A DNA stretch of 64,000 nt from Mobula hypostoma (taxonomy: Eukaryota). The stretch's first letter is position 1. Each line of letters starts with the position of its first letter. Below, one piece after another: positions 7,567-63,085 of this stretch. The notes under the pieces were generated by a model that searched no databases, was not told the origin of the DNA, and saw nothing but the letters and a program-made list of their open reading frames with translations. A program made the translations under genes and the position numbers. The DNA is taken from positions 45,944,001 through 46,008,000 of the forward strand of contig NC_086108.1 of NCBI RefSeq assembly GCF_963921235.1, read 5' to 3'.

Positions 7567-7645
7567 CTACCAGATGGTAACAAAAGTAACTCCTTTGCCT
7601 TGGTTTCTTCTGCTCTCGATTTCCCTTTCTTCCACAAAGGACCAC
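7567..7645 (-). CDS. ovoA: ovoA last coding exon: [26 protein letters not shown]
   Basis: Acceptor ttgtcatgtag; phase fits the previous exon (CA|G); ends in a terminal beta-strand (VTIW) and TAG at 7567-7569. Confidence 0.8.
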
Positions 7646-10600: not shown

Positions 10601-13600
10601 TGCATCTCTAGATTTTGCCTTTGCCTCAGCTTATCTGCAGCTGGAACCCTCACTCATGCCGATATTACTTGTAGATCAGTATTCCAATGCATGTTTGATG
10701 ACCTCTGTTTTACCATCCTTAAAACTGGTGTATAACCTTGTCATAACCTTATGTCCATTGGCTCATCACGCTGATACTCACTGGCCCTCACTTTCTTCAA
10801 ATTAATCAATATTTGACATCAAGTTTCCAAGACTTGCTTTTAAATCCCTACATAGCCTTAACTAATCCTATTGCTATAATCATCTCCACCCCTTTAATTA
10901 TTCAAGATCTCTATTCCATTTGGACACCTTAAACTTCTCTGCATTTGACATACTATCATTGATAGCTATGCCTTAAATCTATAAAGACTAAAGCCATTGA
11001 ATTATTCCCTTAATCTGTTTATCTACGCTTCTTTTCATGCACCATTTTAAATCTTTCTCTATTACATTGTTCTCTGTTAGTTTCTTCTATTTCTCAGTAT
11101 TCAATTTTATTTGGGGTTATTTTTAATTTCAATCATTGAAGCTAATTAGTTGCAAAAGATAAAGTCTGGGGAAGGTTGAGATTAATTTGAAAATGGAGTC
11201 TCAAAGAAACATAATTCTCAATGAGTTGATTATTAAAGTATGAAACATTTTAAAACAAGAGCAAGTAATTTTAATACATTACCTACACATAAGCCTAGTC
11301 TACAAAGAAGCAAATCTAATAAGCAACAAGGTTATATTTACCAGAAGGATATCAACAGGAGCAATGACAGATGGAAACACACACACATAATGCTGGATGA
11401 ACTCAGCAGGCCAGGCAGCATCAATGGAAAAGAGTTCAGTCGATGTTTCGGGACAAGACCCGATGAAGGTTCTTTTCTGTACTCATTTTCCATAGGTGCT
11501 GCCTAGCCTGCTGAGTTCCTCCAGCTTTCTGTGTGTATTACTTGGATTTCCAGCATCTACAGATTTTCTCTTGTTACAGATGGAAACACTTTAGCCCAAT
11601 CTTACCACACAGCTCTGTTATTCCAAGGATAACAAGTGATATGAACATCTAACATACCTGATTTGTTCAAAGCTGTACCTTATAACTAGAATCACTCACT
11701 CTGCTGATTAAATAAAGTTCCCAGCTTACACAATGATGCATATTTTTAAAAAATATTATGAACCTCAACACAAATCATATTTGAAATAATAGATTAATTA
11801 TTTTATAATAATACAAATATTATTAGATCTATTTATGAAGCAGTAAATTCATAAATATGCAACTTTTCTTTTTGGTCTGGCAAAAGAAATTAATGCACTT
11901 TGTGATGTTAGGCATTCTAATTTACCTGATATATACATAATAATTTAACGTAGGTCAGGCATTTAGTAAAAGAAACTCAGAGCAGGTAAATTTTGACCCC
12001 TGCTTTGTACTGTGGAATGAAGGAAAGGTTCATAAGGTTCCCTTTCCAGCACAACCCATAGAATAAAATATCTGCTGGTCCCAAATTAATTTACGATTTA
12101 CCTCCCAGAATTATTGTCAGCACTACTCATTAATGGCTGAGCTGAGCTGAAGAGCTTATGCAAACAATCCAGGGCTGCTTTGCTCCTATGACTAAATTGA
12201 TTTAAATATTTTTAAAAATAAAATTCTTCAATGGTAGGAATTATAATTAACCTAAGTAATCTTGGGGATGCAAAGGTGAAAATAAGGACAGCTGATTTTT
12301 ATGTAGCAAATAGTAATGTCACAATGAGGCAGATAATCTATTTTTATGATGTTCAATTGCAGGATAAAAATTGGCTAGGGCATCAGGCATAAATAATTTC
12401 CCTCATTTTTTTTTGTCTTTGATTTCCCCTCTTTGCCTGTGAAAGTAGTTGAGGCCTCTATTCACCGTTTTATCCAATAATATATCTCTCTCAGTGATGT
12501 ACTGTACCTAGATGAAGAAATGGATCGCAAACTTCCCACTTGGCTATTTTATGAGACCACATCACTTTGAATCAGAACTGTGAAGAATGAGGAAAGGAAG
12601 ACTGCAAAAGAAAATTAACAGTTTCCTCTTTGCCTGCCTGGCCTCCCATCACCCACTGCTCCCATTTTCTTCTGTAGTTCAGCCAAGTCCATCCCATTCC
12701 AACATGAAATAATCTGGTCACTTACTGTTTTCTGAGTTCTTGAAACCTTTGATGCAAATTGCTCCTCTTCCACTTCTCTGAGATGATGACGACCAAACCT
12801 TTTGATTGCACGACACCAGACAAGCGTGCTAGCCAAGCTGGCAAATAAAGAAGGTAGCTTTTCAATAAAATATTAGCAACACTCAAACACCGCCATGTCC
12901 TGAAACAAACACTATTTGATTGTGAAGCAACAGGGAGTGACAAAGAGACTTCCACATTCAATTATGAAGTGCACAAGTCAATAAACCTGGTGTAAAATAT
13001 TTTAAACGATCTATAATAGGTAAGTTGGAAGTCCAAGTTACTTCTTCTTGAAACACTTCAACAAATGCTCTCACAAACTCCCAATACCGTATTTTTGCCC
13101 ATTTCATTAAGCAGTTTTTGCAACAAAATTTTTCCTTGATCTTAAACTCCAAATCCACTACCCCACTCCTTGGATCCCCATTGTGGTGGAGTCGATATTT
13201 ATGGCAAGGTCTTTCACTGCAGCTTATTTCAAAATGCAGATTTCATTCCTTTCTGTCTTTGCTTTGCAAATGACAGGCTTTTAAAATTCAAGCCTATGGC
13301 ATCTGGTTGTCAGTTGCTGTTTATTTTTCTCCAATACCCTTTTCATTCTCAATGATGTCTTTAGTTCTCCAACGAGACTTGTCAAAATATAAAACAAAAA
13401 GAGAACTTTAGCAATACCTTCAAGAATTTAAAGGTGAGTACTTTTGTGAAAAAGGACTTGACAATCATTCCCTCATTTGCCTTTGATGGAATGACATGTC
13501 ATCCCTGAATGGACCAATAAAGCACAAAAAGGCAACCCACGGCAACTCTAATTCTCCTCAAACAAAAAGAGTATTTCAATCACCTTTTCATGAAATAGGA

Positions 13601-16600
13601 TAAACCATGAATTATGTTGGAACTCTCAGCACAGAAGTAGATTATTCTACCAAATTGGTCCAAGCTGCTGGGGAGACCCCTGAAGAGTCTGTCAATATCC
13701 TCCTTCATTTTACCCTCTTATCATATCTCTAAAAAATAACCTCTACAAATATACTCCTTTTTCATATTTATCAAGATTTCCCTTTAAGTTTATCTCAATT
13801 ATTCAATGTGATATCAAGAACCATGTTCCTGCTTCTCCCTGGACAGAGGAGAGCCTGATCGCCTTATTAGTGACCGTCTGTAAAGGATTTCCTAACATGT
13901 TCTAACCTCACAATGGCATCTCATTTTCATATTTTAAACACCTCTAAAAAGTCATTCCAGCCTTCTCCTTGCTAATGAAAAATTGAGTTATTTGATTTTT
14001 TTGGTTCATTTCTAGAAGAGCCTAGAAAATAAAACTGAAATGGAGTCAATCAAATATTCAGATTATTACTTAACTTTAAGGTATTCATCATCATTAAGAA
14101 ACTTGAAAAACAAAGAATCTTGTTTATGAAGAAAAAAATCTAATCAGCTCATAGGAAATTAATGCAAATGATAAAGGGGATCTTATTCAGTTAAATTTCC
14201 TTAATGGAGGGAGATGACAACACAATCATTGTTTTTCGTAGACTCTTGCACTGCTCTGTTTAATGTCACCAATAGGCATTGGCTGAAAGTAGACATGATA
14301 TGAAAAATTTCATTCTCCTGTGACATGAAGGGCTTCTCCCATCCTGTCATTCTCCAGTTGTCGTCTCTTATCAGGTCGGAGTAACTGAACTGTGAATACA
14401 TTTTCCCATATATCATCCACAGATAAAAACGTTCAATCATGTGTGCTTATATCATTGTTAATTCCTCAACTGCCATTTATTATATCAAAAACTAACAGAC
14501 AATTCATTGGAATTATGTCCACGACTAAATTCTTTGATTCACATTATTACTTTTGATGTTATACCATAAAATATTAAGCAGTTGTCTTTTTTACTATTTA
14601 AAAGGGACACTGCTTTAATGAACAAGTGGCAAATGTATTTTCAAAACATTTAAATCATAATGTGTTGGTGACAGAAACTGCAGTAAAATGCAGATCATGT
14701 TATGCAAGATTGAGTCTTCAAAACGAAGACTCATTTATTGATTTTATTTCTCCTTCCTTCCCATCTCAGGAAAAACCTTGTTGCAAATTAAATTGCCCAT
14801 TAATTTCCAGAACTATAGTGCAACCATTATAAAGACATCTTACACACATCACAACACAGATCAAATACACAGACGAAACTTATTTAAAGGGGAAGGAAGT
14901 GCAGTGGATTAGCACTCTCTGAAGCAGATTATATTTGTGGGTATTCTCAATTTGAATTCCAAGTTGTTGCAAATTCATGACACAACAGATATGTCTGTTG
15001 ATAACAGTGTGTATCCTTTTCTCATCTTTGGAGATACAAGTGACTGCAGATGCTGGAATATGGAGCCAGATAAACACACTGCCAAAGGAAATTTGCATCT
15101 GTGGAGGCAAAGGACAGGTGATATTATTGGTCAACACCCTGCATCAGGACTGAGATTGTGAAGCGGAGAGCTGAGGCAGGAGATGTCAAGTAATAGGTGG
15201 ATCCAGGTGAGGTTGGACGGGTGGGATAAGGAGGGATGAAGATACTGACCAAGGTTGGACAGGTGGGATAGGGAGGGATGAAGATACTAACCAAGGTTGG
15301 ACAGGTGGGATGGGGAGGGATGAAGATGCTGACAGAGGTTGGACGGATGGGATAGGGAGGAATGGAGATGCTGACAGAGGTTGGACAGATGGGATAGGGA
15401 GGGGTGAAAATGCTGACAGAGGTTGGACAAATGGGATAGGTATGGATGAAGATATTGACAGAGGTTGGGCAGATGTGATTGGGAGGGATGAAGATACTGA
15501 CCGAGATTGGACAGGTGGGATGGGGAGGGATGAAGACGCTGACTGAGGTTCGACAGGTGGGATGGGGAGGGATGAAGATGCTGACAAAGGTTGGACAGAT
15601 GGGATAGGGAGGAATGGAGATGCTGACAGAGGTTGGACAGATGGGATAGGTATGGATGAAGATATTGACAGAGGTTGGGCAGATGTGATTGGGAGGGATG
15701 AAGATACTGACAGAGGTTGGACAGATGGTATAGGGGAGGGATGAAGATACTGACTGAGGTTGGACAGATGGGATAGGTATGGATGAAGATATTGACAGAG
15801 GTTGAGCAGATGTGATTGGGAGGGATGAAGATACTGACCAAGGTTGGGCAGGTGGGATGGGGAGGCATGAAGATGCTGACTGAGGTTGGGCAGATGGGAT
15901 AGGGAGGAATGCAGATGCTGACAGAGGTTGAGCAGATGTGATTGGGAGGGATGAAGATACTGATCGAGGTTGTACGGGTGGGATGGGGAGGGATGAAGAT
16001 ATTGACCGAGGTTCTATGGGTGGGATGGGGAGGGATGAAGATACTGACCGAGGTTGGAGAGGTGGGATGAGGAGGGATGAAGATGCTGACAGAGGTTGGA
16101 CAGATGGGATAGGGAGGAATGCAGATGCTGACAGAGGTTGAGCAGATGTGATTGGGAGGGATGAAGATACTGATCGAGGTTGTACGGGTGGGATGGGGAG
16201 GGATGAAGATATTGACCGAGGTTCTATGGGTGGGATGGGGAGGGATGAAGATACTGACCGAGGTTGGAGAGGTGGGATGAGGAGGGATGAAGATGCTGAC
16301 AGAGGTTGGACAGATGGGATAGGGAGGAATGCAGACGCTGACAGAGGTTGGACAGATGGGATAGGGAGGGGTGAAGATACTGACAGAGGTTGGACATGGG
16401 ATAGGGAGGGAATGAAGATACTGACAGAGGTTGGACAGATGGGATAGGGAGGAATGTAGATACTGACTGAATTTGGACAGATGGGATAGGGAGTGATAAA
16501 GATACTGACAGGTTGGACAGATGGGATAGGGATGGATGAAGATATTGACAGAGGTTGGGCAGATGTGATTGGGAGGGATGAAGATACTGACCGAGGTTGG

Positions 16601-19600
16601 ACAGATGGGATAGGGAGGGATGAAGATACTGACAGAGAGTGGACATGGGATAGGGAGGGAATGAAGATACTGACAGAGGTTGGACAGATGGGATAAGGAG
16701 GGATGAAGATACTGACCGAGCTTGGACAGGTGGGATGGGGTGAGTTGAAGATACTGACCGAGGTTGGACAGGTGGGATGGGGAGGAATGGAGATGCTGAC
16801 AGAGGTTGGACAGATGGGCTAGGGAGGGATGAAGATGCTGACAGACAGATGGGATAGGGAGGGATGAAGGTACTGACTGAGGTTGGGCAGATGGGATAGG
16901 GAGGGATGAAGATACTGACTGAGGTTGGACAGATGGGATAGGGAGGGATGAAGATACTGACTGAAGTTGGACAGATGGGATAGGTATGGATGAAGATACT
17001 GACCGAGGTTGGGCAGATGGGATAGGGAGGGATGAATATACTGACAGAGGTTGGACAGATGGGGTAGGGAGGGATGAAGATGCTGACAGAGGTTGGGAAG
17101 TGATACCTGGAGGTGACAATGGGCTGCAGATTATGGAATTTGATAAGAAAAGAAAGTGATGAGTGACATCAGATAAGAAAGGGTTGGTAGGCAGAAGACA
17201 CAGTAGGGAAGGTAATAGGGGATCAACTGGATGATAGTAGGAAATAATAGGTGATCAACTGGGCTGATAGTCAGATGGAAGCAGGTGTGAGAGTGGAAAG
17301 AAACTGCGTAACAGGGCTGGAAAGAATGGTTTGTGTAACAGGATGTGGGTCAGTCAGAATAGAGAAAGGAACAGATGGACTGTAAGTTACCTGAAATTGG
17401 AGAATTCATTGTCTATGCCATTTGGTGTGGACTACCATGGTGGAATAGGAGATGGTCACCTAGCACAGCATCCAATTGTAGTGGTTTTTTGATTAGGATT
17501 TTTATGTAGTTGACTGAGAACAATCTCAATGTTTTAGGCAGAAATGCTTCGTATTTCTTTACCCTGCAAATGCCATCTCATCTCCACATTCAATTTGCAG
17601 CAGCTCAGATCCCAAAATAATGGTTCTATTGACTAAATACTTAGGCAGCTGAAGTAAAAATAATGAGGCATTGAAATAACATCTTCTTACTTTCTTTACT
17701 TTGCAGTCTTTTTAAATAAATAAATTAATAAATTTATTACATCATTACATCAGAAATTAATACATCAGGAAGGGTCCTGATGAAGGGTCTCGGCCTGAAA
17801 CGTCAACTGTACCTCTTCCTAGAGATGCTGCCTGGCCTGCTGCATTCCCCAGCAACTTAGATGTGTGCTGGTTGGTAAGAACTCCCGTTCCATTCCCTAG
17901 TGTTTCTGGGACTGTTGCAACTGTTCTGATGACCACATCGTCTACATTGATGCTTCCTTAAATATGTCAGGGCTCTCAGCTGTATCCACTCAGTTACCTC
18001 TACTGTTACTCTCACCCCACTTCTCCCATGTAAATACTGAACCTTCTACCCCTCTAACCCCGATATTCAATAGATCCTATGCAATTTCCACTACACCTAT
18101 ATGTTGGCTCCCCAAACAAATCTTCCTCTCCTGTCCCCTACAGCATTCCTAAAGGTTCAACTACTCTAATGCTCTGATTCACTCTTCTGTCTCCAGCTGA
18201 GCCCTCTCCCCAGAGCATCTTTCCTATGCAATCTCACAAGAGTCAACATTGCCCTTTGCCTCTTCCTTTTCCACAGTCCAGGAAGACAAAAGGTCCTTCC
18301 AGGTGAAGAGGTCACCTACTTGTATTAATTCCAATCTGTTGTGCTGCATTTAGAATCAGGTTTAATATCACTGGTATATGTCGTGAAATTTGTTAGCTTT
18401 GTGGCAGTACAATGCAACACATAACAACAGAGAGAAAACTGTTCACACTGTTGTCCCCCCATAAAGAAGAAACCTCTGACAGATTTGGTGACCAGTGTGA
18501 AGAACACCCCTATTCAGTTGGCAAGAGCAACCTTGAGGTTCCAGTTGCCTGTCAGTTTCATTCTCTATAATGCTCCCACCCTGAGTTCTCTGTCATTGGC
18601 CTTTTCAGCTTAATGAAAGCCAACATTTTAGCCCCAGCGACAGCATCTCACCTTCTAACAAGGCACAATGCAGCCCTCAGGATTCAACACTGATAACAAT
18701 CTCAGATAACCAGATTACTCAGTTGTGTCACAATTTACTGGTTATTAATGAAAGGTCATCCTGTAATTTTATCTCAGATTTATAGTGTTTTGTGTCTCAC
18801 AGTTCCAGTTTTGCTTTTTCTCCTTAGCTTTTTCTCAGTCATTTCCCTCTATTTACATTTCCACCAGAGCAATCAGCTGTGATTACCCACTTTTATCAAC
18901 TCCTCTCTGATAACACTGACACCACTCTTACCATCTGTCTCTCGTGATCTCGAGTTTATTCTACACAGCTTGCTCTCTTCTTTCTCTGCAGTATTAAACC
19001 TGTTTATTTCCAATTCTTCTTGGTTCTGATGACAAGTCATCAACGACAGGTGCTAATTCTATTTCACTCTCCCCAGCTGCCTAATCTGCCAAGTATTTCC
19101 ATCATTTGCAGTTTATAATGTCTTGTTTACTTTGTGAAGATGCATTCAAATAGTACAGCAAAGTTCTGAATAACACAGACACATGGAGAAAATAACTCTC
19201 TGCTGGGACTTGCAGGGAAGATAACTCGGCTGGGACTTGCAGGGAAGATAACTCTCTGCTGGGACTTGCAGGGAAGATAACTCTCTGCTGGGACTTGCAG
19301 GGAAGATAAATCTCTGCTGGGACTTGCAGGGAAGATAAATCTCTGCTGGGACTTGCAGGGAAGATAGGTCAAACTCAAAATGACTTTACTATTTTATGGA
19401 AGAATTGAGAGGGCTTGACAAATTCTGTGAAAAGGAAAGAAAACATTAAGCAAAATGTGAAGACAAATTTCAGAGACCAACACGCTGTTCTAAAATGAAG
19501 AATCAGAAACAATCAGTAAATCAAAACATTTCTAAATCTTTCACATCCATTGCAATGTTTGTTACCAATTTGTGTGATCTCCATTAACATTTATTACTTT

Positions 19601-22600
19601 TCAAGAGTTTGTCTGAGTGATTTGCTTTCATTCCAGGCGATTTTAGTTTGCTGCTTTAAGTATTTTCCTGGTGTGAGCTCACACGGTAAACACAGACAGA
19701 ATGGTTTGCCATCGTAGCAGAGGGACATGGGTGTAAAGTAATGAAACTGCAGGTCACAGTTAGAAAAACATGGGATCCTGGGATTCTAAATAGAAGCATA
19801 GAGTACAAACAAATGGGTATAATAAATCTCAGGTACAGATATATAGAATATATTTTGTTTTCTTTCTTAACTCCTTCTCTTGTGAAGACACAGTGCCAAA
19901 GACTGTCACACCACGAAGCAGACCTCTCAGTAGCTGCCTTCATTGGTTACCTTGCATGTGTGGGGTTTAGACATTAATCAAAAAAGTTCTTACAAGCTTA
20001 AAAAGACATGCTAAACCAGCACTAGCAAATATTAGGGCAGTCAATTTCTATTCTGCAGACACAAGTTTTATAAACTATGCTGGTCCACCCAGTGGTAAAT
20101 TTTTAATGTTTTATGATTTTATTAGATCCCAATTGGATTATAATTTTAGCAACTACTAATATATTGAATGCAATAGATCTAATAACAGTGCCAGTTTAGC
20201 ACCATAATTAGCATATCCTTTTATTGAGTACAGATCTGAGAGACCATTTTCAGTTTTGCTTGAATCTCTGGTTTGTGAACAATGTCCTCTTTATGGTTCA
20301 TACTGTATGCTCTAATTAGCAATTATAATAAGACTTGTGCCAAGCCTTGACAAAGGATACCTTCAGCAGTGCACAGTCTTGTAACTAATGTACCTTAAGT
20401 TATATTTGAGGCTTTATGAAATTGACTTCTAGCCTCTACATGGAATAATTCTCTGGAATTAGCCTCCAGTAAAAGTTATTTATGTTTACTGCATTTGGAA
20501 GCTCACTCCTGAAGACAATGCTAAACAGATTACAACATTGTGTGAGTATATTATAAATGCCTCAAGATTTCGAGACAGGGAATGAATGTGTCCACACAAT
20601 TTTAAGTATATTTGGCAACACCACAGGGGTTGAAGTTCTTGACACTAATGGGGAATGGGATTAATTGTAGCACCCACTTTTCCATAAATTGCAGGTGGTA
20701 GTGGAGGAACTTTATGTGAAAACAAAGCAAGTTTCAAAATATCAGTGTATTAAAGTGTAATAAATATTATGTTGCATACAGAATAAGTAATCTGTCTAAA
20801 AGTCTACCACATACAGTCTGGTATCACAGCTGGCTAAAATGCAGTGTTTCCATAGAGTAATACAGCACAAAAACCGGCCTTTTGGCTCATCTAGTCCACA
20901 CCAACCAAGATTTGCATTTAAGCTTTGTCATTGTCCCATTGACAATGCTTGGTCCACATTCTTCTAAGCCTTTCCTATCCATGTAACTGTCCAAATGTTT
21001 TTAAAATGTTGTTATTGCTTACAAGGTCAAAGTTGGTCCTTGTTGTGAAATAACATTCCACTTTTTAAAAATGTTCTTAGCGTTACGAATACTGAGTGTT
21101 TAAGATTGGTTCATTAAATATCGCTTCTCCTCTTGTGAGTGGCCACTTCATTAAGTACAGCTGTACACCTGCTCATTAATGCAAATTTATAATTGGCTAA
21201 TTGTGTGGCAGCAACTCAATGCATAAAAGCATGCAGACATGGCCAAGACGTTCAGGTATTGTTCAGTTCAAATAAAATGTGGCCGTGGGATGATTGCTGG
21301 TGCCGGGCATAGTAATTTAAGTATCTCAGAGACCTCCTGGAATTTTCACACACAATAGTCTCGAGAGATTACAGAGAATGGTGTGAAAAGCAAGAAAAAA
21401 TCCGGTGAGCAGCAGTTCTGTGGGTGAAAACACCTCGTTGTGAGATTGGTCAGAGGAGAATGGCCAAAATGGTTCAAGCTGACAGGAAGGCGACAGTAAC
21501 TTAAATAACCATGCGTTACAATGGTGATGTGCAGAAGAGCATCTCTGAACACACAACACACAAATTTTGAAGTGGATGTGTGACAGCCGCAGAAGGCCAC
21601 ACTGGTTTCACTGGGTGTATCTAATAAGGTAGCCACTGGGTGTATATCCTAATGGATCCAGTCAGCATCCTCAGAGCTAAAGGAAGACCTGCGGTTAGAA
21701 ATGCTGAGACTGCAAGTTCTGCTTCTGAGACAGAGGGGACATTTGCTGTCAACTTTCAACAGCAGAGGAACTCAAAACGCACAGCAGAAACCTTATATAT
21801 TTTTGTACTGTTTTTGAAATGACAGAATTTCAAGCTTCAAGAGACCTTTCAGAACTCATGGAAATAAGCAATCTATTAAAACAGTTTTCTCCAGAGGTGG
21901 CAGAGTTGGATGATCTTTGATTTGGCAATCTGTTAAATTAATAAATTATGCTTAACATTATGTATTACATCATTAAGATAACATTAGCACTGTCCTAATC
22001 ATGGCTTGTATAAAAATTCAGTAAATCTTACCTGAGGGATTGAGGGTACGATCAAGGAAATCAAGAAGTATAAAACTATGATGTCCAACTTCATTAGGAA
22101 TCCAAGTAAGCTGAAAAATCAAGAGTCCTTCCATTAATATCCTAATTGTGCTAATTATCAGTAAGCTGCCTCCGTGAGAGTACTGCAGCAACTAGAAAAG
22201 AATAAGGTTAAACTGAGGAGCCAAAAAAGGTCACTTTGTCCCTTGCTGTCATGACTAGCATGTGATACAACAACTATGCAAATGTGGACATTCAAAGCAT
22301 TCGACCTCTATCAACTAATCCATAACTAACCTATGAGATTGGTGAGGAAGAGCACTACATGGTGAACCATAGGTCCAAGGTCATCTGTTCCTCCCACTCA
22401 TGCTGCAAGGGAGTTCTCCGGAATTGACCTGGTCTCTATTAATTAATGTAAATGAATTGGGGCTCTAGGGAGTTTGGAATCAAGTACGGGTCATTTCATA
22501 GAGCACCACATTTACCTGGTTGCCTAATTGAAGAAGTTCTAAGGCATGTACATGTCATGTCTCCAATTACTCATGCGCTGCATTAAAAATGTAACAAATT

Positions 22601-43600: not shown

Positions 43601-46600
43601 TAGAGGAACTTGTGATAATTAATTGCATTCCATGGTAACTACCTGTACTCTGGCAATTCTTCTCCATTCCAGTTCTTCTCGATACCATTCCAGTGTCCAT
43701 TTAGACTGTTGCTGTGAGGTTCATCCGTGCGAACAGCTTTAACGTTAGCTTTATCTGGCTGACAATGAGAGTAACCTGCAAGGCTACCACCACAGCCAGA
43801 CTTGCATCCTATTGAAAAATGAAGTTAAAACATTGTCTGCATTGTAGAAAAGAATGGCCAAATCCAAATCTTTTTTCCCCCTTTTCTGAAGGTGATAATT
43901 CATGAAGTGACTGATAAGGACTGTTCACAATTAGTCACATGACTGCTTGTTTTGCAAACATTGACAGAGAACGTTGCTGAGCTATTCCAACATGAGAGGT
44001 GACACTGACACTGGCTTCCTCCTTACAAAGGCCTACCCAGGAACCACCGCACTACAACTTCTGCGAACCCTGCGACACTGCTCCTTCAAGAGGCAAATTA
44101 TCATCCTCCAAGTTCCAACCTCACTGAGATCAGTTAAGGGTTAATCTTGATATATATATGGCTTGGTACATTTAGAACAGGCAGCATCTATGGAAAAGAG
44201 TACAGTCAACATTTCAGGCTAAACCCCTTCAGCAGGGCTGGAGAAAAAAAGCTGAGGGGTAGATTTAAAGGTGGGGGAAGGGGAAAGAGAAACACAAGGT
44301 GATAAGTGAAACTTAAAGGGGGAGGGATGAATGTCCCCACCCCCTCTCCTTCACTATTTTCTATTCTCTTTTCCCTCTCTCACCTCATCTCCTTGCCTGC
44401 CCATCGCCTCCCTCTGGTGCTCCTCCCCCCTTTTCTTTCTTCCATAGTCTTCTGTCTCTTTCACCGATCAACTTCCCAGCTTTTAACTTCATCTCTGCCC
44501 CCTCCAGGTTTCACCTATCACCTTGTGCTTCTCTCTCCCCTCCCCTCACCTTTTAAATCTACTCCTCAGCTTTTTTTCTCCAGTCCTGCTGAAGGGTCTC
44601 AGCCCAAAACATCAACTGTATTCTTTTCATAGATGCTGCCTGGCCTGTTGAGTTCCTCCAGCATTTTGTGTGTGTTGCTTGGATTTCCAGCATCTGCAGA
44701 TTTTCTCTTGTCTGGGTTAAGCTGTATGGGTCCTAATGCCCTTCCCTTGGACAACATTGGTGTCGTGGAGAGGGGAGATTTGAAGCATGGGCAACTTTTG
44801 GTCTTCCACACAACCTTGCCCAGGCCTGCGCCCTGGAGAGAGAGTGAAGACTTTCCAGGCGCAGATCCATGGTCTCGCAAAACTGGAATTCTACATCGTA
44901 CAGGAAATACTTAACAATGGTCCAGTCATTGCCAGTACTTTCAGTTGCTTCTGAAATTCCACAGGAAACATTCGAGACTATGAGTTACTGACGTTACCTA
45001 CACTAGATAAGGAAGCTTGCACTTGCATGTTCGCTCACGAACGTAAATTTTATCAGTTTAATATGCCAGGTATTTTTAGAATAAAGGGCTTTTAGAGGAC
45101 AGGAGGGAATAGTGTCTACCTGAAACACAATTTATGAACTTGTACTTAAATAATAAAAATAAATTAGTAATTAAGCATGCACAATGATCTTCTCCATCAA
45201 GTTCCCAACATATTTTATGCAATGGACTGATACCATTAAGCAAGGGGTCGGTGGACCCTAGGCTGGGAGACCCTGCCCTACAAGGACTATGGAGCAACTA
45301 ATTGGAGTCGTAATGCTAAAGATAGCACTTTCAAACCTAACTCCATTATATGCGCATTTTCCACAGGGATTGAGGGCTCATGGACTAAATTCTAATAAAC
45401 CAAGTTGCTCAATTAACACAGTGTCTAAGTTATTAGTCAGTTATATCCATTTTATTTTCAAAGTGCCATCCCAGGTGAGTGAATTGCCTGACGTAGAACT
45501 AGGTTGATTAGTTCATTTAAAAACAAACGGCTACCTGGTTGGTGTAGATGGTAATTTTGAATATGGAAGCTGCAAGTAAATTTTTTGTGAAAGATTCCAA
45601 AATCTTCCAATTACCTATTGATTCAGAGACAGTTAATATGGTAAAAATGAATGGGACATGTGGACTAAGTAATCTGAAGTAATAAATACTGATCCAAAAC
45701 TGCAAATGAGAATTGGGGCACATGTAAAATTATACTCTGAGAATGTTCCCTGCACAATAAACTTTAGGAATATTTAAATTACATTTAAGACCATAAGATA
45801 TAGGAGCAGAATTTGGCCATTCAGTCCATCGAGTTTGTTCCACATTCCACCATGGCTGATCTTGGATCCCACTCAATCCCATACACCTGCCTTCTAGCCA
45901 TATCCTTTGATGCCCTGACCAATCAAGAAACTATCAATTTCCACTTTAAATATACCCCCAGAGGGCCTCCACTGCAGTCTGTAGCAGAGCATTCCACAGA
46001 TTCACCACTCTCTGGCTAAAAAAAATTCCTCCTTACCTCTGTTCTAAAAGTTCATCCCTCAATTTTGAGGCTGTGCCCTTTAGTTCTGGATAGCCCCACC
46101 ATAGAAACATCCTCTCCATATCCACTTTATCTAATCCTTTCAGCATTCAGTAGGTTTCAATGAGATTCCCCCACATTCTTCTAAATTCCAGTGAGTACAG
46201 GCCCAAAGCTGCCAAATGATTCTCATATGTTAATCCCTTCAATCCTGGAATCATCCTCGTGAACCTCCTCTGGACTCTCTCCAATGACAATGAAATAAGG
46301 GGCCCAAAAATGTTGACAAAACTCCGAGTGCAGACTGACTAGTGTCTTACAAAGCCTCAGCATTATCTCCTTGTTTTTATATTCCATTCCCCCTGAAATA
46401 AATGCCAACATTGCATTTGCCAACTTTACCACAGACTCAATCTGTAAATTACCCTTCTGGGAGTCTTGCATGAGGACTCCCAAGTCCCTTTGCACCTCCG
46501 ATGTTTGAATTTTTTCCCCATTTAGATGATAGTCTCCACGATTGTTCATTTTACCAAACTGCATTATCGTACATTTCCCAACACTGTATTCCATCTGCCT

Positions 46601-52600: not shown

Positions 52601-55600
52601 TCCCCCTCTCAAATTGCAGTATGAATTCAATCATATTATGATCACTGTTCCTAAGGGTTCCTTTACGTTAAGCTCCCTAATAAGTTCTGGGTTATTACAT
52701 AACACCCAGTCTAAGATGGCCTTTCATCTAGTAGACTCAAGCACAAGCTGCTCTAAAAAGCCTTCTTGCAGGCATTCAACAAATTCCCTCTCTTGCGATC
52801 TGACACCAGTCTGATTTTCCCAATCCCCTTGCATATTGAAGTCCCCCATTACAACTGTGACACTACCCTTATTACATGCCTTTTCCAGCTCCCTTTGCAA
52901 TCCCAACCCCACATCTTGGGTACTATTTGGAGGCCTAAATGTGATTCCCAGAATGTTTTTTTCACTCTTGCAGTTTCTTAACTCCACCCACAAAGATTCA
53001 ACATTCTCTGACCCTATGTCACCTCTTTCTAAAGATGTAATTCCATCTCTTAGCAACCGAGCTACACCACCGCCTATGCCTTCCTGCCTGTCCTTTCAAT
53101 ACAAGGTATATCCTTTGATGTTAAACTCCCATCTATGGCCTTCTTTTAGCTACGACTCAGTGATGCCCACAATATCATAACAACCAATCTATACTTGCAT
53201 AAGTTCATCCACCTTATTGTGAATGCTATGCACATTTAAATACAGCACTCTCAGCCCTCCAGTCTTCACCCTTTTGAACTTTGCCTTTTTGGCATGTGTT
53301 AACTTGAGGATAGTAATACATCAGCTTTTGTCATTGTGTATGAAACCATAGAAACCATAGAAAAACTACAGCACAGAATAAGGCCTTTTGACCCTTCTTG
53401 GCTGTGCCGAACCATTTTCTGCCTAGTCCCACTGACCTGCACACAGACCATATCCCTCCATACACCTCCCATCCATGTATCTGTCCAATTTATTCTTAAA
53501 TGTTAAAAAAGAACCCGCATTTACCACCCTGTCTGGCAGCTCATTCCATACTCCCAGCACTCTCTGTGTGAAGAAGCCCCTCCTAATGTTCCCTTTAAAC
53601 TTCCCCCCCCTCACCCTTAACCCATGTCCTCTGCTTTTTTTCTCCCCTTGCCTCAGTGGAAAAAGCCTGCTTGCATTCACTCTATCTATACCCATCATAA
53701 TTTTATATACCTCTATCAAATCTCCCCTCATTCTTCTACGCTCCAGGGAATAAAGTCCTAACCTATTCAACCTTTCTCTGTAACTGAGTTTCTCAAGTCC
53801 CGGCAACATCCTTGTAAACCTTCTCTGCACTCTTTCAACCTTATTAATATCCTTCCTGTAATTTAGTAACCAAAACTGAACACAATACTCCAGATTCGGC
53901 CTCACCAATGCCTTATACAACCTCATCATAACATTCCAACTCTTATACTCAATACTTTAATTAATAAAGGCCAATGTACCAAAAGCTCTCTTTATGACCC
54001 TATCTACCTGTGACACCACTTTTAGGGAATTTTGTATCTGTATTCCCAGATCCCTCTGTTCCACTGCACTCTTCAGTGCCTTACCAGTTACCCTATATGT
54101 TCTACCTTGGTTTGTCCTTCCAAAGTGCAATACCTCATACTTGTCTGTATTAAACTCCATCTGCCATTTTTCAGCCCATTTTTCCAGCTGGTCCAAGACC
54201 CTCTACAAGCTTTGAAAACCTTCCTCACTGTCCACTACACCTCCAATCTTTGTATCATCAGCAAATTTGCTGATCCAATTTACCACATTATCATCCAGAT
54301 CATTGATATAGATGACAAATAACAATGGACCCAGCACTGATCCCTGTGACACACCACTAATCACAGGCCTCCACTCTGACAAGCAATTCTCTACTACCAC
54401 TCTTTGGCTTCTTCTATTGAGCCAATGTCTAACCCAATTTACCACCTCTCCATGTATACCTGGCGACTAAATTTTCCTAACTAACCTCCCATGCGGAACC
54501 TTGTCAAAGGCCTTACTGAAGTCCACGTAGACAACGCCCACCGCCTTCCCTTCATCCACTTTCCTGGTAACCTCCTCAAAAAACTCCAATGGATTGGTCA
54601 AACATGACCTACCACACACAAAGACATGTTGACTCTCCCTAATAAGTCCCTGTCTATCCAAATGCTTGTAGATTCTGTCTCTTAGTACTCCCTCCAATAA
54701 CCTACCTACTACCGACGTTAAACTTACCAACCTATAATTTCCCAGATTACTTTTCAATCCTTTTTTAAACAACGGAACAACATGAGCCATTCTCCAATCC
54801 TCCGGCACCTCACCCGTAGACACCAACATTTTAAACTTATCTGCCAGGGCCCCTACAATTTCAACACTAGTCTCCTTCAAGGTCTGATGGAATACCCTGT
54901 CAGGTCCTGGGGATTTATCCATTTTAATTCGCCCCAAGATAGCAAACACCTCCTCCTTTTCAATCTGTACAGTTTCCATGATCTCACTACTTGTTTCCCT
55001 TAATTCCATAGACTTCATGCCAGTTTCCCTAGTAAATACAGACAGAAAAAACCCATTTAAGATCTCCCCCATTTCTTTTGGTTCCACACATAGCCGACCA
55101 CTCCGATCTTCAAGAGGACCAATTTTATCCCTTACAATCCTTTTACTCTTAAAATACCCGTAAAAGCTCTTGGATTATCCTTCAATAGACAATAGACAAT
55201 AGACAATAGGTGCAGGAGTAGGCCATTTGGCCCTTTGAGCCAGCACCGCCATTCACTGTGATCATGGCTGATCATCCACTATCAGTATCCAGTTCCTGCC
55301 TTATCCCCATAACTGTTATCTTTAAGAGCTCTATCCATCTCTTTTTTGAAAGCATCCAGAGACCTGGCCTCCACAGCCTTCTGGGGCAGAGCATTCCATA
55401 TATCCACCACTCTCTGGGTGAAAAAGTTTTTCCTCAACTCCATTCTAAATGGCCTACCCCTAATTCTTAAACTGTGGCCTCTGGTTCTGGACTCACCCAT
55501 CAGTGGGAACATGCTTCCTGCCTGCAGCGTGTCCAATCCCTTAATAATATTATATGTTTCAATAAGATCCCCTCTCAGCCTTCTAAATTCCAGAGTATAC

Positions 55601-58448
55601 ACGCCCAGTCGCTCCAATCTTTCGACATATGACAGTCCCGCCATCCCAGGAATTAATCTTGTGAACCTACGCTGCACGCCCTCAATAGCAAGAATGTCCT
55701 TCCTCAAATTTGGAGACCAAAACTGCACACAGTACTCCAGGTGTGGTCTCACCAGGGCCCTGTACAGCTGCAGAAGGACCTCTTTGCTCTTATATTCAAT
55801 TCCCCCTGTTATGAAGGCCAGCATGCCATTAACTTTCTTCACTGCCTGCTGTATTTGCATGCTTGCTTTCAGTGACTCATGTACAAGAACACCTAGATCT
55901 CGTTGTGCTTCCCCTTTTCCTAACTTGACTCCATTTAGATAATAATCTGCCTTCCTGTTCTTACCACCAAAGTGGATAACCTCACATTTATCCACATTAA
56001 GCTGCATCTGCCATGCATCTGCCCACTCACCCAGCCTGTCCAAGTCACATGGATTCTCATGACATCCTCCTCACATTTCACACTGCCACCCAGCTTTGTG
56101 TCATCGGCAAATTTGACTGCCAAGGCAACCTCATGTCTACTTTTAACCCTCCTGATTTCCTTCTTAAGTATTTTCTTGCACTTTTTATACTCCTCAAGCA
56201 CCTTATTTATTCTCTGTTTCCTACACATGTCATACAACTCTCTCTTCTTCTTTATCAGAGTTGCAATATCCCTTGAGAACCAAGGTTCCTTATTCCTATT
56301 CACTTTGCCTTTAATCCTGACAGGAACATACAAGCTCTGCACTCTCAAAATTTCTCCTTCGAAGGCTTCCCAGTTACTGATCACATCCTTGCCAGAGAAC
56401 AACCTGTCCCAATCCACGCTTTTTAGATCCTTTCTCATGTCTTCAAATTTGACCTTCTTCCAGTTCAGAACCTCAACCCTAGGACCAGATCTATCCTTGT
56501 CCAAGGTCAAGTTGAAACTAATGGTGTTATGATCACTGGAACCAAAGTGCTCCCCTACCCACACTTCCATCACTTGTCCTAACTCGTTTCCTAACAGGAG
56601 ATCCAATATTGCATCCCCTCTAGTTGGTACCTCTATATATTGATTTAGAAAACTTTCCTGAACACATTTTACAAACTCTAAACCATCTAGACCCCTAACA
56701 GTATGGGAGTCCCAATCAACATGTGGGAAATTAAAATCCCCTACCACCACAACTTTTTGTTTCCTGCAGTTGTCTGCTATCTCTCTGCAGATTTGCTCCT
56801 CCAATTCTCGCTGACTATTGGGTGGTCTATAATACAACCCCATTAATGTGGCCATACCTTTCCTGTTTCTCAGCTCCACCCATAAGGACTCAGTAGACAA
56901 GCCCTCTAATCTGTCCTGGCTGAGCACTGCTGTAACATTTTCCCTGACAAGCAATGCTACCCCCCCACCTTTCATTCTTCTGCCTCGATCACATCTGAAA
57001 CATCGGAACCCTGAAATATTAAGCTGCCAGTCCTGCCCCTCCTGTAGCCAAGTTTCACTAATTGCTATAACGTCATAATTCCACGTGTCAATCCACGCCC
57101 TCAACCAGTCTGCCTTCCTTGCAATACTCCTAGCATTGAAATATATACACCTCAGAAGTTTTTCACTACCACTCACAACCTTTCTATTTGTGGCTGTGCT
57201 TGAACTTTTAATATCATTTATTTTCACCCCAACCACACTGTCAGCTCTGGCACCCTGGTTCCCATCCCCTGCAAATCTAGTTTAAGGCCACCCCAACAGC
57301 ACTAACAAACCTCCCTGAAAGGATATTGGTCCCCTTGTAGTTCAAGTGTAACCCGTGTCTCTTGTACAGGTCCCACCTGCCCCAGAAGAGGTCCCAATGA
57401 TCCTGAAATCTGAAACCCTGCCCCCTACACCAGTTCCTCAGCCACTTGTTCATCCTCCAGAGCATCCTATTCCTACCCTCACTGGCACCTAGCACAGGTT
57501 GCAATCCTGAGATTACCACTCTCGAGGTCCTGCTTTTCAACTTCCTACCAAGCTCTCTATACTCACTCTCCAGGACCTCCTCACTCTTCCTTGCTATGTC
57601 ATTGGTACCGACGTGCACCACGACATCTGGCTGATCACCCTTCCACTTCAGGATGTCATGCAAGCGATCAGAGACATCCTTCACCCTGGCACCCGGGAGG
57701 CAACAAACCATCCTGGATTCTCTGTCATGACCACAGAACCTCCTATCTGCACCTCTAACTATCGAGTCCCCTATCACTACCACTCTCCTCTTTTTCCACC
57801 CTCCCTTCTGCACTGCAGAGCCAGACTCAGTGCCAGAGATCCGGCTACTGCAGCTTGTCCCAGGTAAGTCATCCCCCCCAACAGTATCCAATACGGTATA
57901 CTTGTTGTTGAGGGGAATGGCCACAGGGGAACTCTGCTCTGCCTGCCCTTTCCTCTTCCCTCGCCTGACAGTGACCCAATTTCCTGTGCTCTGCTCCTTT
58001 GGCGTAACCACCTCCCTGTAGCTACTATCTATAATCTCCTCATTCTCCCGAATGATCTGGAGGTCATCCAGCTCCTGCTCCAGTTCCCTAACGCATGCTT
58101 AATACTAATTCCTTTTATTGTCAAAATACTGACTTACTTTGGTTTCATTTCAAATATTTCTTTTGTTAATATATTTTTTACCATTTGCTCCACAAGGTTC
58201 AATGTCAGGTAATGAAAGAAACAGTACAATTTCTGAACTATTGTTCTAACTCTTCCGGAGTTGGAGAATCCAACTGATTCGTACCTTTAGTACAGACCCA
58301 GAACGTAGGATGCTGAGCCTGACGAAACTTCCTCCACTCCCAGCCTTCCTTAGTCCAGTAGTTTTCCTTTACATATCCTCCATCCTGCACAAACTTCCAA
58401 TATTCTCCGTTTGTTATCAGGTACTTGCTAGCTTGAAACTCCGGCACA
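7567..58448 (-). CDS. ovoA: OvoA-like ovothiol biosynthesis enzyme (5-histidylcysteine sulfoxide synthase / mercaptohistidine methyltransferase), 5'-partial, 12 exons in window
   Basis: Manual splice model: complement(join(7567..7645,12726..12837,22032..22110,23261..23386,24344..24514,26818..26912,27843..28008,33781..33945,34789..34881,41419..41569,43643..43808,58285..58448)). All introns are GT-AG and all phases chain (1567 nt, 521 aa + TAG). Motifs: [78 protein letters not shown], then MTase-like LGSGTG...VIGIDY. Confidence 0.9.
7889..8046. mobile_element. Short Penelope-derived fold-back element
   Basis: Inverted arms around 8005-8015; 13-bp TSD TTAACCTTGTTCT at 7876-7888 and 8047-8059. 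Confidence 0.85.
9000..10499 (+). mobile_element. CR1-type LINE, 5'-truncated, frameshifted RT
   Basis: [33 protein letters not shown] and KFADDTK; (CTATTGT)n tail. Confidence 0.92.
11381..11575. mobile_element. Short Penelope-derived fold-back element
   Basis: Inverted arms; 14-bp TSD ACAGATGGAAACAC at 11367-11380 and 11576-11589. Confidence 0.8.
12726..12837 (-). CDS. ovoA: ovoA exon: [37 protein letters not shown]
   Basis: Acceptor tttatttgccag, donor CA|gtaagt; 112 bp; phase 1 to 2; matches the MTase 'L...G.LVI.S' strand. Confidence 0.85.
15030..17460 (-). mobile_element. Decayed Penelope-like element whose purine-rich UTR contains an expanded minisatellite
   Basis: pLTR-like ctgcagatgctggaa ... 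catcaggact at 15044-15151; GIY-YIG C-terminal-like remnant (ttacctgaaattggagaattc) at about 17387. Confidence 0.6.
15200..17097. repeat. 42-bp minisatellite, about 45 copies (GATACTGACAGAGGTTGGACAGATGGGATAGGGAGGGATGAA)
   Basis: Periodicity visible directly; 210-bp (5-unit) higher-order duplication, seen as ORFs at 15938 and 16148 with the same first 67 aa. Confidence 0.95.
17772..17870 (+). mobile_element. Solo Penelope pLTR fragment with hammerhead motif
   Basis: gtcCTGATGAagggtctcggcctGAAACgtc followed by the shared pLTR sequence. Confidence 0.8.
18060..18710 (+). mobile_element. Highly decayed Penelope-like fragment with a small inserted LINE tail (about 18350-18425)
   Basis: Weak similarity to the other copies (tccttccaggtgaag; ggattcaacactga). 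Confidence 0.45.
19192..19366. repeat. 29-bp tandem repeat, 6 copies (ATAACTCTCTGCTGGGACTTGCAGGGAAG)
   Basis: Read directly from the sequence; the second copy is 2 bp shorter. Confidence 0.95.
21136..21643 (+). mobile_element. Non-autonomous Tc1/mariner-like DNA transposon
   Basis: Imperfect TIRs agtggccacttcattaagtaca / tgtatctaataaggtagccactg with TA at the right end; internal transposase-like remnant (agcatctctgaacacaca). Confidence 0.7.
22032..22110 (-). CDS. ovoA: ovoA exon: [26 protein letters not shown]
   Basis: Acceptor atttttcag, donor CAG|gtaaga; 79 bp; phase 0 to 1; LDR..NP segment. Confidence 0.87.
23261..23386 (-). CDS. ovoA: ovoA exon: [42 protein letters not shown]
   Basis: Acceptor tctttcatag, donor CAG|gtaaac; 126 bp; post-motif I V.GIDY..RFI..A..L...G. 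Confidence 0.9.
23630..23975 (+). mobile_element. CR1 3' fragment
   Basis: Similar to the reverse complement of 281-620; tttctatgtttcta tail. Confidence 0.85.
24344..24514 (-). CDS. ovoA: ovoA exon, MTase motif [58 protein letters not shown]
   Basis: Acceptor tttactcag, donor AAG|gtgctg; 171 bp; GxGxG loop followed by xxSFxL. Confidence 0.88.
26818..26912 (-). CDS. ovoA: ovoA exon, linker: [32 protein letters not shown]
   Basis: Acceptor ttttctgcag, donor CAG|gtaggt; 95 bp; phase 1 to 0; YETD motif at the start of the MTase region. Confidence 0.85.
27600..27820. mobile_element. Degenerate Penelope-derived fold-back element
   Basis: Inverted pLTR arms (ctggagaaattcag ... ctgagctcctccag). 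Confidence 0.6.
27843..28008 (-). CDS. ovoA: ovoA exon: [55 protein letters not shown]
   Basis: Acceptor gtattcatag, donor CAG|gtaaaa; 166 bp; GGSW...[11 protein letters not shown] marks the end of the FGE-sulfatase-like domain. Confidence 0.93.
28140..28370. mobile_element. Degenerate Penelope-derived fold-back element
   Basis: ctggaggaactcag ... catcaggac ... ctgacttcctccaac. Confidence 0.55.
29400..30235 (+). mobile_element. Decayed CR1 3' fragment
   Basis: Degenerate RT C-terminal and 3'UTR similarity to the other CR1 copies. Confidence 0.7.
30310..33345 (-). mobile_element. Decayed Gypsy/Ty3-type LTR retrotransposon (gag, protease region, RT start), interrupted by later insertions
   Basis: Gag N-terminus MAGYI...[19 protein letters not shown] (about 33156-32920); zinc knuckle CYRCG..SH / CNKVGH (ORF 31928..32248); RT start [36 protein letters not shown] (about 30440-30315). 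Confidence 0.8.
30524..31503 (-). mobile_element. Penelope-like element 3' fragment inserted in the Gypsy pol region
   Basis: [30 protein letters not shown] and LVLTYHP; pLTR at the left end. Gypsy coding resumes on both sides. Confidence 0.88.
33781..33945 (-). CDS. ovoA: ovoA exon: [55 protein letters not shown]
   Basis: Acceptor ccctgcag, donor CTG|gtgggt; 165 bp; GNVWEW and the OvoA-type YDDFS.P.FDG.H motif. Confidence 0.93.
34789..34881 (-). CDS. ovoA: ovoA exon: [31 protein letters not shown]
   Basis: Acceptor ctcttcatag, donor ACG|gtaggt; 93 bp; phase 0-0; NINL..GSP segment leading into the PV of the next exon. Confidence 0.85.
35520..35790 (-). mobile_element. CR1 3' end fragment
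   Basis: agaacatagaaca tail; translates as EGYGSCAG. Confidence 0.7.
36847..38493 (+). mobile_element. Penelope-like element (RT plus GIY-YIG), 5'-truncated, with an inverted partial pLTR at the 5' end
   Basis: [31 protein letters not shown], then GIY-YIG; 14-bp TSD CTTTCCATACAGTT at 36833-36846 and 38494-38507. Confidence 0.95.
38395..38432 (+). ncRNA. Minimal type I hammerhead ribozyme motif in a Penelope pLTR
   Basis: UAGUC-CUGACGA-stem II-GAAAC-GUC^-GACUG. Stem I is UAGUC/GACUG; palindromic ACGU replaces stem III. Confidence 0.75.
38768..39700 (+). mobile_element. Decayed Rex1/Babar-like (CR1-group) LINE fragment
   Basis: CNWILDFL...[25 protein letters not shown] C-terminus. Confidence 0.75.
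39705..41050 (-). mobile_element. Penelope-like element fragment (RT C-terminus plus GIY-YIG)
   Basis: ORFs 39965..40258 and 40283..40705; closely similar to the reverse complement of 37070-38360. Confidence 0.92.
41419..41569 (-). CDS. ovoA: ovoA exon: [50 protein letters not shown]
   Basis: Acceptor ctctacag, donor CAG|gtacgc; 151 bp; FGE-sulfatase PV.V...EA.AFC.W...RL.TEAE motif. Confidence 0.92.
41800..42740 (+). mobile_element. Highly decayed CR1 fragment
   Basis: [22 protein letters not shown] remnant. Confidence 0.7.
43643..43808 (-). CDS. ovoA: ovoA exon, Cys/Gly-rich insert: [56 protein letters not shown]
   Basis: Acceptor tttcaatag, donor AG|gtagtt; 166 bp; phase 1 to 2, exactly bridging the flanking exons. 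Not in the ORF track in this frame. Confidence 0.85.
44178..44711. mobile_element. Penelope-derived inverted-repeat element (UTR plus pLTR)
   Basis: 44178-44330 is the reverse complement of about 44480-44642. Confidence 0.8.
47131..48436 (-). mobile_element. Penelope-like element with inverted pLTRs, each carrying a hammerhead motif
   Basis: GIY-YIG remnant; inverted arms ~47131-47260 and ~48268-48400; TSD CCCA(A/G)CCACTGAG at 47118-47130 and 48437-48449. Confidence 0.92.
47192..47229 (-). ncRNA. Minimal type I hammerhead ribozyme motif
   Basis: Minus strand reads UAGUC CUGACGA AGGGUCUCGGCCU GAAAC GUC GACUG. Confidence 0.75.
49023..50727 (-). mobile_element. CR1-type LINE 3' part with an inverted 5' segment (about 50625-50727)
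   Basis: [13 protein letters not shown] and [11 protein letters not shown]; the plus-strand piece reads [16 protein letters not shown], upstream CR1 sequence in the opposite orientation. Confidence 0.85.
50728..53300 (-). mobile_element. CR1-type LINE upstream part (APE endonuclease region), interrupted by a solo LTR
   Basis: ESLWVELRN...RPPNS...VVMGDFN (ORF 52724..53056); [14 protein letters not shown]. Confidence 0.85.
50963..51799 (-). mobile_element. Solo LTR (837 bp), probably Gypsy-type
   Basis: TGTTACG...CGTAACA inverted termini; 4-bp TSD CTCA (50959-50962 and 51800-51803); minus-strand AATAAA at 51046-51051. Confidence 0.88.
55184..56113 (-). mobile_element. Nested 5'-truncated CR1 (same subfamily as 9000..10499)
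   Basis: (CAATAGA)n tail at 55184-55209; starts at KFADDTK; the host reading VALAVK|(V)KDNP resumes across it. Confidence 0.9.
57277..58011 (-). CDS. CR1 ORF1 fragment with SGNH/GDSL esterase domain
   Basis: [19 protein letters not shown] and HGLHLN motifs. Confidence 0.85.
   Translation of the reverse strand: MVTPKEQSTGNWVTVRRGKRKGQAEQSSPVAIPLNNKYTVLDTVGGDDLPGTSCSSRISGTESGSAVQKGGWKKRRVVVIGDSIVRGADRRFCGHDRESRMVCCLPGARVKDVSDRLHDILKWKGDQPDVVVHVGTNDIARKSEEVLESEYRELGRKLKSRTSRVVISGLQPVLGASEGRNRMLWRMNKWLRNWCRGQGFRFQDHWDLFWGRWDLYKRHGLHLNYKGTNILSGRFVSAVGVALN
58285..58448 (-). CDS. ovoA: ovoA exon (first in window), FGE-sulfatase-like domain: [54 protein letters not shown]
   Basis: Acceptor ttcctgtag, donor G|gtacga; 164 bp; EgtB/OvoA-type TNGEY..FV.DGGY motif. 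Confidence 0.92.
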
Positions 58449-58663
58449 CTACAGGAATGTATTTAGAATAGTTAAAGAGAAATATTTGCATGCATATTGC
58501 ATACACAATTACTAACCCCTACCCACCTCACACATCTTTCTGGAGGACAGAGTCGGACAGCCAGTCAGTCAAGTCTACATTGGTCTAAAGAGCAATTCCA
58601 TTCCTTCATTTATTTTCTCATTTATCTCTTACAGTCGTAGAATACTATAGCATAGAAACAGAC

Positions 58664-58911
58664 TGCTGGCGGTTTGATGTTTATCTTTAGAAGCTTTTTG
58701 TATGACGCATGGCTCCGGGGTTGAACACCTAATGGGGGTTTTGTTCTCACTTTACCTTGCTTAGTAGGAGTTTTTTTCTTTTTTTTGTCACCAAAATTTT
58801 TTCAATCTTTAAAATAATGTTTTTTTTCTTGAGACATTGTAAGTGCTGTCTACTTCGATGTACTCTTGTTAATTTTGGATAATAATAATAAAAAGATTTG
58901 AAAAGAAAGAA
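58664..58911 (+). mobile_element. Short retroposed insertion with A-rich tail (probably an L1/Tx1-like 3'UTR)
   Basis: 15-bp TSD AGCATAGAAACAGAC at 58649-58663 and 58912-58926; AATAAA followed by an A-rich tail. Confidence 0.75.
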
Positions 58912-58977
58912 AGCATAGAAACAGACCCTTCAGCCCATTAACATGCCGACCTGGTCTCCTGCCGAGTCCCATCTACC

Positions 58978-62954: not shown

Positions 62955-63085
62955 ACATCCATAAGGAACACAGGGCACCAGGAGGAAAACCAAGCAGGCA
63001 CAGGGAAAACATGCAAATTCAGAAGACAGCACTGGAGGCCAGGATTGAACCTGGGTTGCTGGGACTGTGAATCTGCAGCTCCACA
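62955..63085 (-). mobile_element. tRNA-derived V-SINE (HE1-like) fragment
   Basis: Minus strand has the B-box GGTTCAATCC followed by V-domain-like TTTGCATGTTTTCCCTGTG...GGTTTTCCTCC. Confidence 0.65.

Follow-up and report, generated by a model that had tools for sequence, protein, structure and literature searches.

A nonsense codon, probably of recent origin, interrupts the ovothiol gene ovoA in the ray Mobula hypostoma

Microbial OvoA couples histidine and cysteine into a sulfoxide, which lyase and methyltransferase steps then convert to ovothiol (PMC10696552). Among animals, the gene has been described from the sea urchin, where it has 19 exons, and from the cartilaginous fish Callorhinchus milii; the losses reported there are confined to bony vertebrates, nematodes and arthropods (PMC4768315). 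Bony fish, which lack ovoA, nonetheless have ovothiol in their lenses, for which dietary uptake has been proposed as one substitute (PMC6572425, PMC9029387). Here, we describe the ovoA locus of the ray M. hypostoma, starting from a window of 64,000 nucleotides (G000:C50:45944001-46008000, where G000 is the genome assembly and C50 the contig). The ray gene shares with the Callorhinchus and sea urchin enzymes the DinB-like, FGE-like and methyltransferase layout and the HX3HXE motif, and it has 19 exons, as in the sea urchin (PMC4768315). Over aligned residues, its product is 53% identical to OvoA of Paracentrotus lividus and 60% to that of Callorhinchus.

The presence of OvoA in cartilaginous fishes, mentioned in the preliminary description of this DNA, is thus already in print (PMC4768315), and one-chain models that include both parts of the active site exist for 16 of the 18 chondrichthyan species in the protein collection used here, the other two being split. 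An intact ray ovoA would for these reasons be ordinary. Both the gene and its presence in this lineage are thus as expected; what did not turn up in the literature searched is its fresh nonsense break. PMC4768315 treats cartilaginous fish as keepers of the gene, whereas the frame of this ray is cut at codon 189. Likewise, the sulfoxide synthase domain of Hydrogenimonas thermophila OvoA (8KHQ, residues 7-455) is a single chain (PMC10696552), and that of the ray is split by the stop. The situation also differs from that of bony fish, in which no orthologue was found (PMC6572425, PMC9029387): a single codon spoils an otherwise whole ray gene, and sister species are at hand for comparison.

Structure and family of the ray gene

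Twelve exons lie in the window on the minus strand, running from 58448 down to 7567 (a span of 50,882 bases, of which 1,567 nt are coding). Each of the 11 introns that separate them has GT-AG ends, and the joined frame is open for 521 codons, an event with a chance of about 3e-13 at the local stop frequency of 0.054; the preliminary description had proposed just this spliced frame, and we confirm it. The two protein motifs that it singled out, of 13 and 12 residues, occur on that same strand, at 33831 and 27954, respectively. Using ray and shark homologues as guides, and 50 kb of additional sequence upstream of the window, we mapped the whole gene to 19 coding exons, of which the window holds exons 8-19. 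Seven more lie upstream, as far as an ATG at C50:46037388. In the full gene, 18 of 18 introns are GT-AG and there are no frameshifts; read through with an X at the lone internal stop, the product has 757 residues.

The first seven exons, all on the minus strand and beyond the window end, are exon 1 with the ATG (G000:C50:46037315-46037388), exon 2 (G000:C50:46036958-46037022), exon 3 with R59, Y65 and H68 (G000:C50:46022730-46022842), exon 4 (G000:C50:46019586-46019654), exon 5 (G000:C50:46017447-46017587), exon 6 with H163, H167, E169 and the premature TAG (G000:C50:46010265-46010391, 2.3 kb past the window) and exon 7 (G000:C50:46008483-46008600). Intron 7, which leads to them, occupies window positions 58449-64000. 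Within the window, also on the minus strand, follow exon 8 (58285-58448, codons 236-291), exon 9 (43643-43808, codons 291-346), exon 10 (41419-41569, codons 346-396, with Met356), exon 11 (34789-34881, codons 397-427), exon 12 (33781-33945, codons 428-482, with the catalytic Tyr466 and Phe469), exon 13 (27843-28008, codons 483-538, with the OvoA-type motif F499-A500-F501 and FRRHFFQH), the linker exon 14 (26818-26912, codons 538-569), exon 15 (24344-24514, codons 570-626, with the methyltransferase glycine loop G610, G612 and G614), exon 16 (23261-23386, codons 627-668, with D631), exon 17 (22032-22110, codons 669-695), exon 18 (12726-12837, codons 695-732) and the coding part of exon 19 (7567-7645), which ends with a derived TAG at codon 758. 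A former coding tail and 3′ untranslated part extend from 7566 to at least 7330, as far as a contig of run X5 covers them.

The introns contain long tandem arrays and, judging from open reading frames, LINE-like reverse-transcriptase fragments. In intron 7, a 49-base unit is repeated in 69 copies with 96% matches (58976-62366) and yields long false open reading frames; intron 17 has arrays at 15209-17096 (42-base unit, 45 copies) and 19188-19366 (29-base unit, 6 copies). On the minus strand of intron 8, at 55282-57281 and 57277-58098, broken long frames resemble LINE ORF1 and endonuclease/reverse transcriptase and are presumably of CR1 type.

Two RefSeq proteins of M. hypostoma are letter-identical to parts of this product: XP_062920045.1 corresponds to residues 1-188 and XP_062920042.1 to residues 356-757. 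These models are probably not independent of G000. The identity marks the animal as this devil ray or a very near relation. From this match, we identify the two "uncharacterized" RefSeq genes as halves of a single ovoA gene. Our searches of G000, one of which had a stricter first pass and which give a lower bound on copy number, returned no second ovoA beyond this locus. There is a weak match to the exon 12 peptide at G000:C58:24059257-24059337 (26 bits over 27 residues, E 0.04), perhaps a SUMF-family exon.

Sequence comparisons place the gene in the OvoA family rather than with EgtB or SUMF1, as the preliminary description had proposed from the domain architecture. The orthologue of Hemitrygon akajei, 92% identical, scores 635 bits against the OvoA model TIGR04344 (cut-off 400) versus 157 against the EgtB model TIGR03440 (cut-off 360). 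The 402-residue piece identical to the 3′ half of the ray gene scores 222 bits on TIGR04344, with the same cut-off of 400, as scanned with this partial protein. Is the gene instead an ergothioneine synthase of EgtB type IV, or SUMF1-like? Some shark copies carry the database name "ergothioneine biosynthesis protein 1-like", and among structures the Hemitrygon orthologue matches EgtB-IV 8VIH at 405 bits, nearly the 406 bits that it reaches on OvoA 8KHQ. Because these two scores are almost alike, a motif is needed to tell the families apart. According to PMC11030361, OvoA carries (Y/F)AF where EgtB-IV carries NWF, and the OvoA composite is RxYH--DxHxHYF(Y/F)AFx. Mapped through the alignment, the ray gene matches this composite at R59, Y65, H68, D100, H163, H167, Y466, F469, F499, A500 and F501; NWF is absent and FAF stands in its place. 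A methyltransferase-like domain at the C-terminus and the two TIGR scores also speak against EgtB, and SUMF1/FGE-family chains reach only 21-30 bits versus the 406 bits for OvoA with the same Hemitrygon query. Taken together, we consider either alternative barely credible.

Three iron-binding histidines are encoded, H68 in exon 3 and H163 and H167 in exon 6, where E169 completes HX3HXE (HERIHLE). Residues R62, Y68, H71, H162, H166, Y406 and F409 of 8KHQ (PMC10696552) correspond to R59, Y65, H68, H163, H167, Y466 and F469 of the ray. The Tyr of LYDDFS in exon 12, suspected earlier to be catalytic, is indeed this Tyr466, which aligns with Y406 of 8KHQ; Y406 in turn has been equated with Y377 of EgtB. 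In a quick tree of 29 rows, which contained no EgtB, EgtB-IV or SUMF1 rows, the gene is sister to Hemitrygon plus Hypanus (support 100) within the chondrichthyans (support 100). No bony vertebrate is named among the best 120 of 7,717 protein matches, many of which are nameless.

The C-terminal methyltransferase-like domain keeps the GxGxG loop and D631. It scores 61.5 bits on TIGR04345 (cut-off 170; the sea urchin scores 65.6) and matches the methyltransferase domain of 8KHQ weakly (6 bits). The Asp that precedes the SAM glycine loop in exon 15 (24344-24514) is Val or Ile in all 14 chondrichthyan rows; this Asp is present in sea urchin and bacterial OvoA, and is also missing in mussels. We considered a dead methyltransferase in sharks and rays and found the idea unsupported, since mussels are without the same Asp and the sea urchin scores equally low.

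The premature stop at codon 189

Exon 6 carries an in-frame TAG at codon 189 (G000:C50:46010287-46010289), 22 codons after H167 and thus between the iron ligands and the catalytic Tyr466. No further inactivating lesion came to light in the gene. In 27 of the 27 aligned homologues that cover this column, from rays to bacteria (29 alignment rows minus this gene and one partial row), the residue is Trp. The codon lies 2.3 kb outside the window, and the preliminary description had called the gene intact and credited the animal with a functional endogenous thiohistidine pathway. The gene is in fact broken, and a working pathway is unsupported, given a nonsense codon in both DNA and a spliced, RNA-like contig. 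The upstream HX3HXE exons that were to be sought beyond position 64000 do exist, in the form of HERIHLE in exon 6, although it is this same exon that the TAG disrupts, a kind of damage that the preliminary description had itself named as counting against its view.

Two runs from this ray reach codon 189. In the DNA run X1, which may be the source of G000, one contig spans it (L013:1664-2620) with 0 differences. Run X5, by its listing, comes from a different sample and a different study of the same organism; it is RNA-like by our guess, yet spliced. Its contig, of depth 59.4, leaves out precisely the predicted intron of 1,664 bases and has 0 differences, which puts the TAG in the spliced message; the loose end of the contig matches the beginning of exon 8. 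By such loose ends, X5 contigs join exon 7 to exon 8 and exon 18 to exon 19. The depth of the spliced contig, far above the intron depth of 2-14, implies that the message is not wholly destroyed. One X5 contig of 2,555 bases ends within exon 19 (window 7616-7645), versus 2,225 modelled coding bases to that point; a retained intron, an extra exon or a long leader may therefore exist. Run X10 reaches just the beginning of exon 6, short of codon 189.

The ray is represented by two samples, at most two animals: S1 (one of its four listed runs was used) may be the source of G000, and S2 is possibly the same animal. Still, the DNA run and the spliced run, the latter from another listed sample, show TAG and no other letter. 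This makes it very unlikely that an assembly error explains the stop and that ovoA is in fact intact, even though the rest of the gene appears constrained and one-chain models prevail among chondrichthyans. All runs were available as contigs, which drop rare variants, and low-level editing or a minor allele could therefore escape notice. We consider it highly probable that this ray has a 19-exon ovoA which is transcribed and spliced, and in which the TAG at codon 189 likely makes a null allele, that is, a young pseudogene.

What would the stop do? By analogy with 8KHQ, the intact OvoA of relatives would be one chain in which H68, H163 and H167 hold the iron and Tyr466 would help couple histidine and cysteine into the sulfoxide; the C-terminal domain is predicted to methylate the product, with lyase and methyltransferase steps completing ovothiol. 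In M. hypostoma, translation would end at residue 188, in a piece that has the iron ligands and lacks Tyr466, Phe469 and the FAF motif. A restart at Met356 in exon 10, the first in-frame ATG past the premature stop, would give a piece without iron ligands, and residues 189-355 are in neither predicted piece. Because the stop codon cuts ovoA in two, the animal is likely unable to make ovothiol. A stop more than 50-55 nt upstream of an exon junction usually triggers nonsense-mediated decay, and codon 189 lies at least 140 nt upstream of 12 later junctions, which makes the ovoA message a predicted target. By the same reasoning, if the X5 animal also had a Trp allele, decay of the TAG message would be expected to leave that allele dominant in the mRNA.

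It is conceivable that the stop is bypassed, through A-to-I editing of UAG to Trp, through read-through or through pairing of two separately made halves, such that some enzyme is produced. UAG is a favored ADAR triplet, and editing yields exactly a Trp codon; moreover, the transcript undergoes splicing, no active-site residue has been lost and the A that would be edited is paired in the local fold. Against this stands the X5 contig, which is unedited. Searched over about 3 kb, the strongest partner strand (-31.9 kcal/mol) falls inside the range of 18 control 41-mers (-24.7 to -40.4). The base that follows the TAG is A, which is not known as a context that favors read-through. As for two halves, 12 out-of-frame ATGs precede Met356, and neither half would contain residues 189-355. 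Overall, we think a bypass improbable.

Rescue by exon skipping was also considered and rejected: of the blocks tested, 13 skips are in frame, and whenever exon 6 is skipped, H163 and H167 are lost along with the stop. Exon 6 has one in-frame GT before the stop, the use of which as a donor would delete 21 codons; such an earlier donor was unseen among the 15 joints listed out of 60.

Age and fixation of the null allele

Having weighed these alternatives, we return to a null allele and ask how old it might be. Run X6, which comes from a different organism, has TGG at codon 189. Over four long pieces that total 2,545 bases, it has 60 differences from G000 (2.4%), and since this close a relative has the Trp codon, the break is likely recent. 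Run X6 covers 3 of the 19 exons (6, 7 and 19) and carries R185S; coverage of so few exons falls short of proving its gene intact.

Apart from the stop, the M. hypostoma gene gives no hint of prolonged decay. With Pristis as outgroup, there are 16 lineage-specific amino-acid changes here versus 29 in Hemitrygon (p = 0.07); two other outgroups give 12:20 and 15:23. None of the three comparisons is significant, and all have fewer changes here. Relative to the 3′ piece of Hypanus, the counts are 8:5, this gene first. Of 318 columns that do not vary among eight other chondrichthyans, this gene deviates in 15, a figure that counts the stop, compared with 14 for Hemitrygon. Long-term decay was thus set aside, there being no frameshift and no excess of amino-acid change in the relative-rate counts, and for the same reasons the break looks young, which we grade as likely from the sequence comparison. 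One caution is that, had the gene been fully neutral since the split from the X6 organism, about 27 coding substitutions and 1.3 nonsense changes would be expected on this branch; because as many as 1.3 nonsense changes are predicted, a single stop cannot separate an old loss from a new one. As we read these sequences, the stop at codon 189 arose after the split from the X6 organism, and selection would have held the gene over most of the lineage, keeping ovoA until recently.

Fixation of the null within the species is close to an even call, and we lean slightly toward it. In the other case, the stop segregates, the sampled animals are homozygous and the species still has working Trp189 alleles. 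A single inactivating change, with no frameshift and no amino-acid excess, seen in two animals at most, would be compatible with that. In contrast, both samples carry only TAG, and homozygous nulls are likelier if the allele is common. We give segregation appreciable weight, somewhat short of an even chance.

A second stop tells a different story. The TAG that closes the 521-codon frame (7569-7567, codon 758) is derived as well; the older stop, TAG TGA, lies 15 codons further on at 7524-7519, and X5 contigs cover exon 19 joined to exon 18. Runs X13 and X16 have AAG (Lys) at codon 758. Of the 13 other chondrichthyan rows, 11 likewise have Lys, and the remaining two are short isoforms that end earlier. 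The X6 organism shares the TAG, which directly follows the last conserved Trp, and the Chiloscyllium protein ends two residues further. For these three reasons, we take the codon 758 stop to be older than that at codon 189 and, as far as sequence can indicate, likely harmless. Separately, run X13 (organism E) has R739G and S734F in exon 19 (window 7626 and 7639-7640, respectively), both absent from run X16.

Other cartilaginous fishes and the supply of ovothiol

Two uncharacterized RefSeq orthologues, those of Hemitrygon akajei (772 residues, 92% identical) and Pristis pectinata (776 residues, 86%), keep 17 of 17 key positions. Unlike this ray, both have Trp189, and both have Lys758 followed by a tail of 15-17 residues. 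The Callorhinchus model is without the last two exons. In exon 3, codon 57 (Arg57 of PDRLRLP) is Gln in this ray, Hemitrygon and Hypanus, and Arg in the other aligned chondrichthyans. In RefSeq, the ovoA of Hypanus sabinus, the second of the two split species, is divided between two models (proteins P0323 and P0010). The 301-residue model keeps Trp189, with exons 1, 7 and 8 missing; the 343-residue model starts at Met431, and exon 11 is in neither. This split may reflect separate decay or assembly gaps. If it is decay, then rays of the stingray lineage could now be losing ovothiol synthesis repeatedly, by a fixed nonsense codon here and separately in Hypanus sabinus, while Hemitrygon keeps the gene. 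We put this forward tentatively and think it rather doubtful. Were it true, it would replay the bony-fish loss among close living relatives and would let dietary replacement be tested.

How might such an animal obtain ovothiol? Food likely supplies it, by analogy with the proposal for bony fish. Devil rays feed on zooplankton. Copepods and decapods possess ovoA (PMC8623360). Both points speak for a dietary explanation. However, the filter-feeding Rhincodon (whale shark) and Cetorhinus (basking shark) keep 775-residue models, which weakens a simple explanation from diet.

No report of a broken ovoA in a ray appears among the matches listed from the openly searchable literature, subscription papers lying outside that search. 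In the main text of a mobulid genome preprint (10.64898/2026.10.27.761883), "ovothiol", "pseudogen" and "gene loss" have 0 occurrences; its supplements could list the gene. The break corrects the picture of cartilaginous fish as uniform keepers of the pathway. With relatives that have Trp189 for comparison, this ray and its fresh null would serve as a natural knock-out for the question of whether ovothiol comes from food or by another route.
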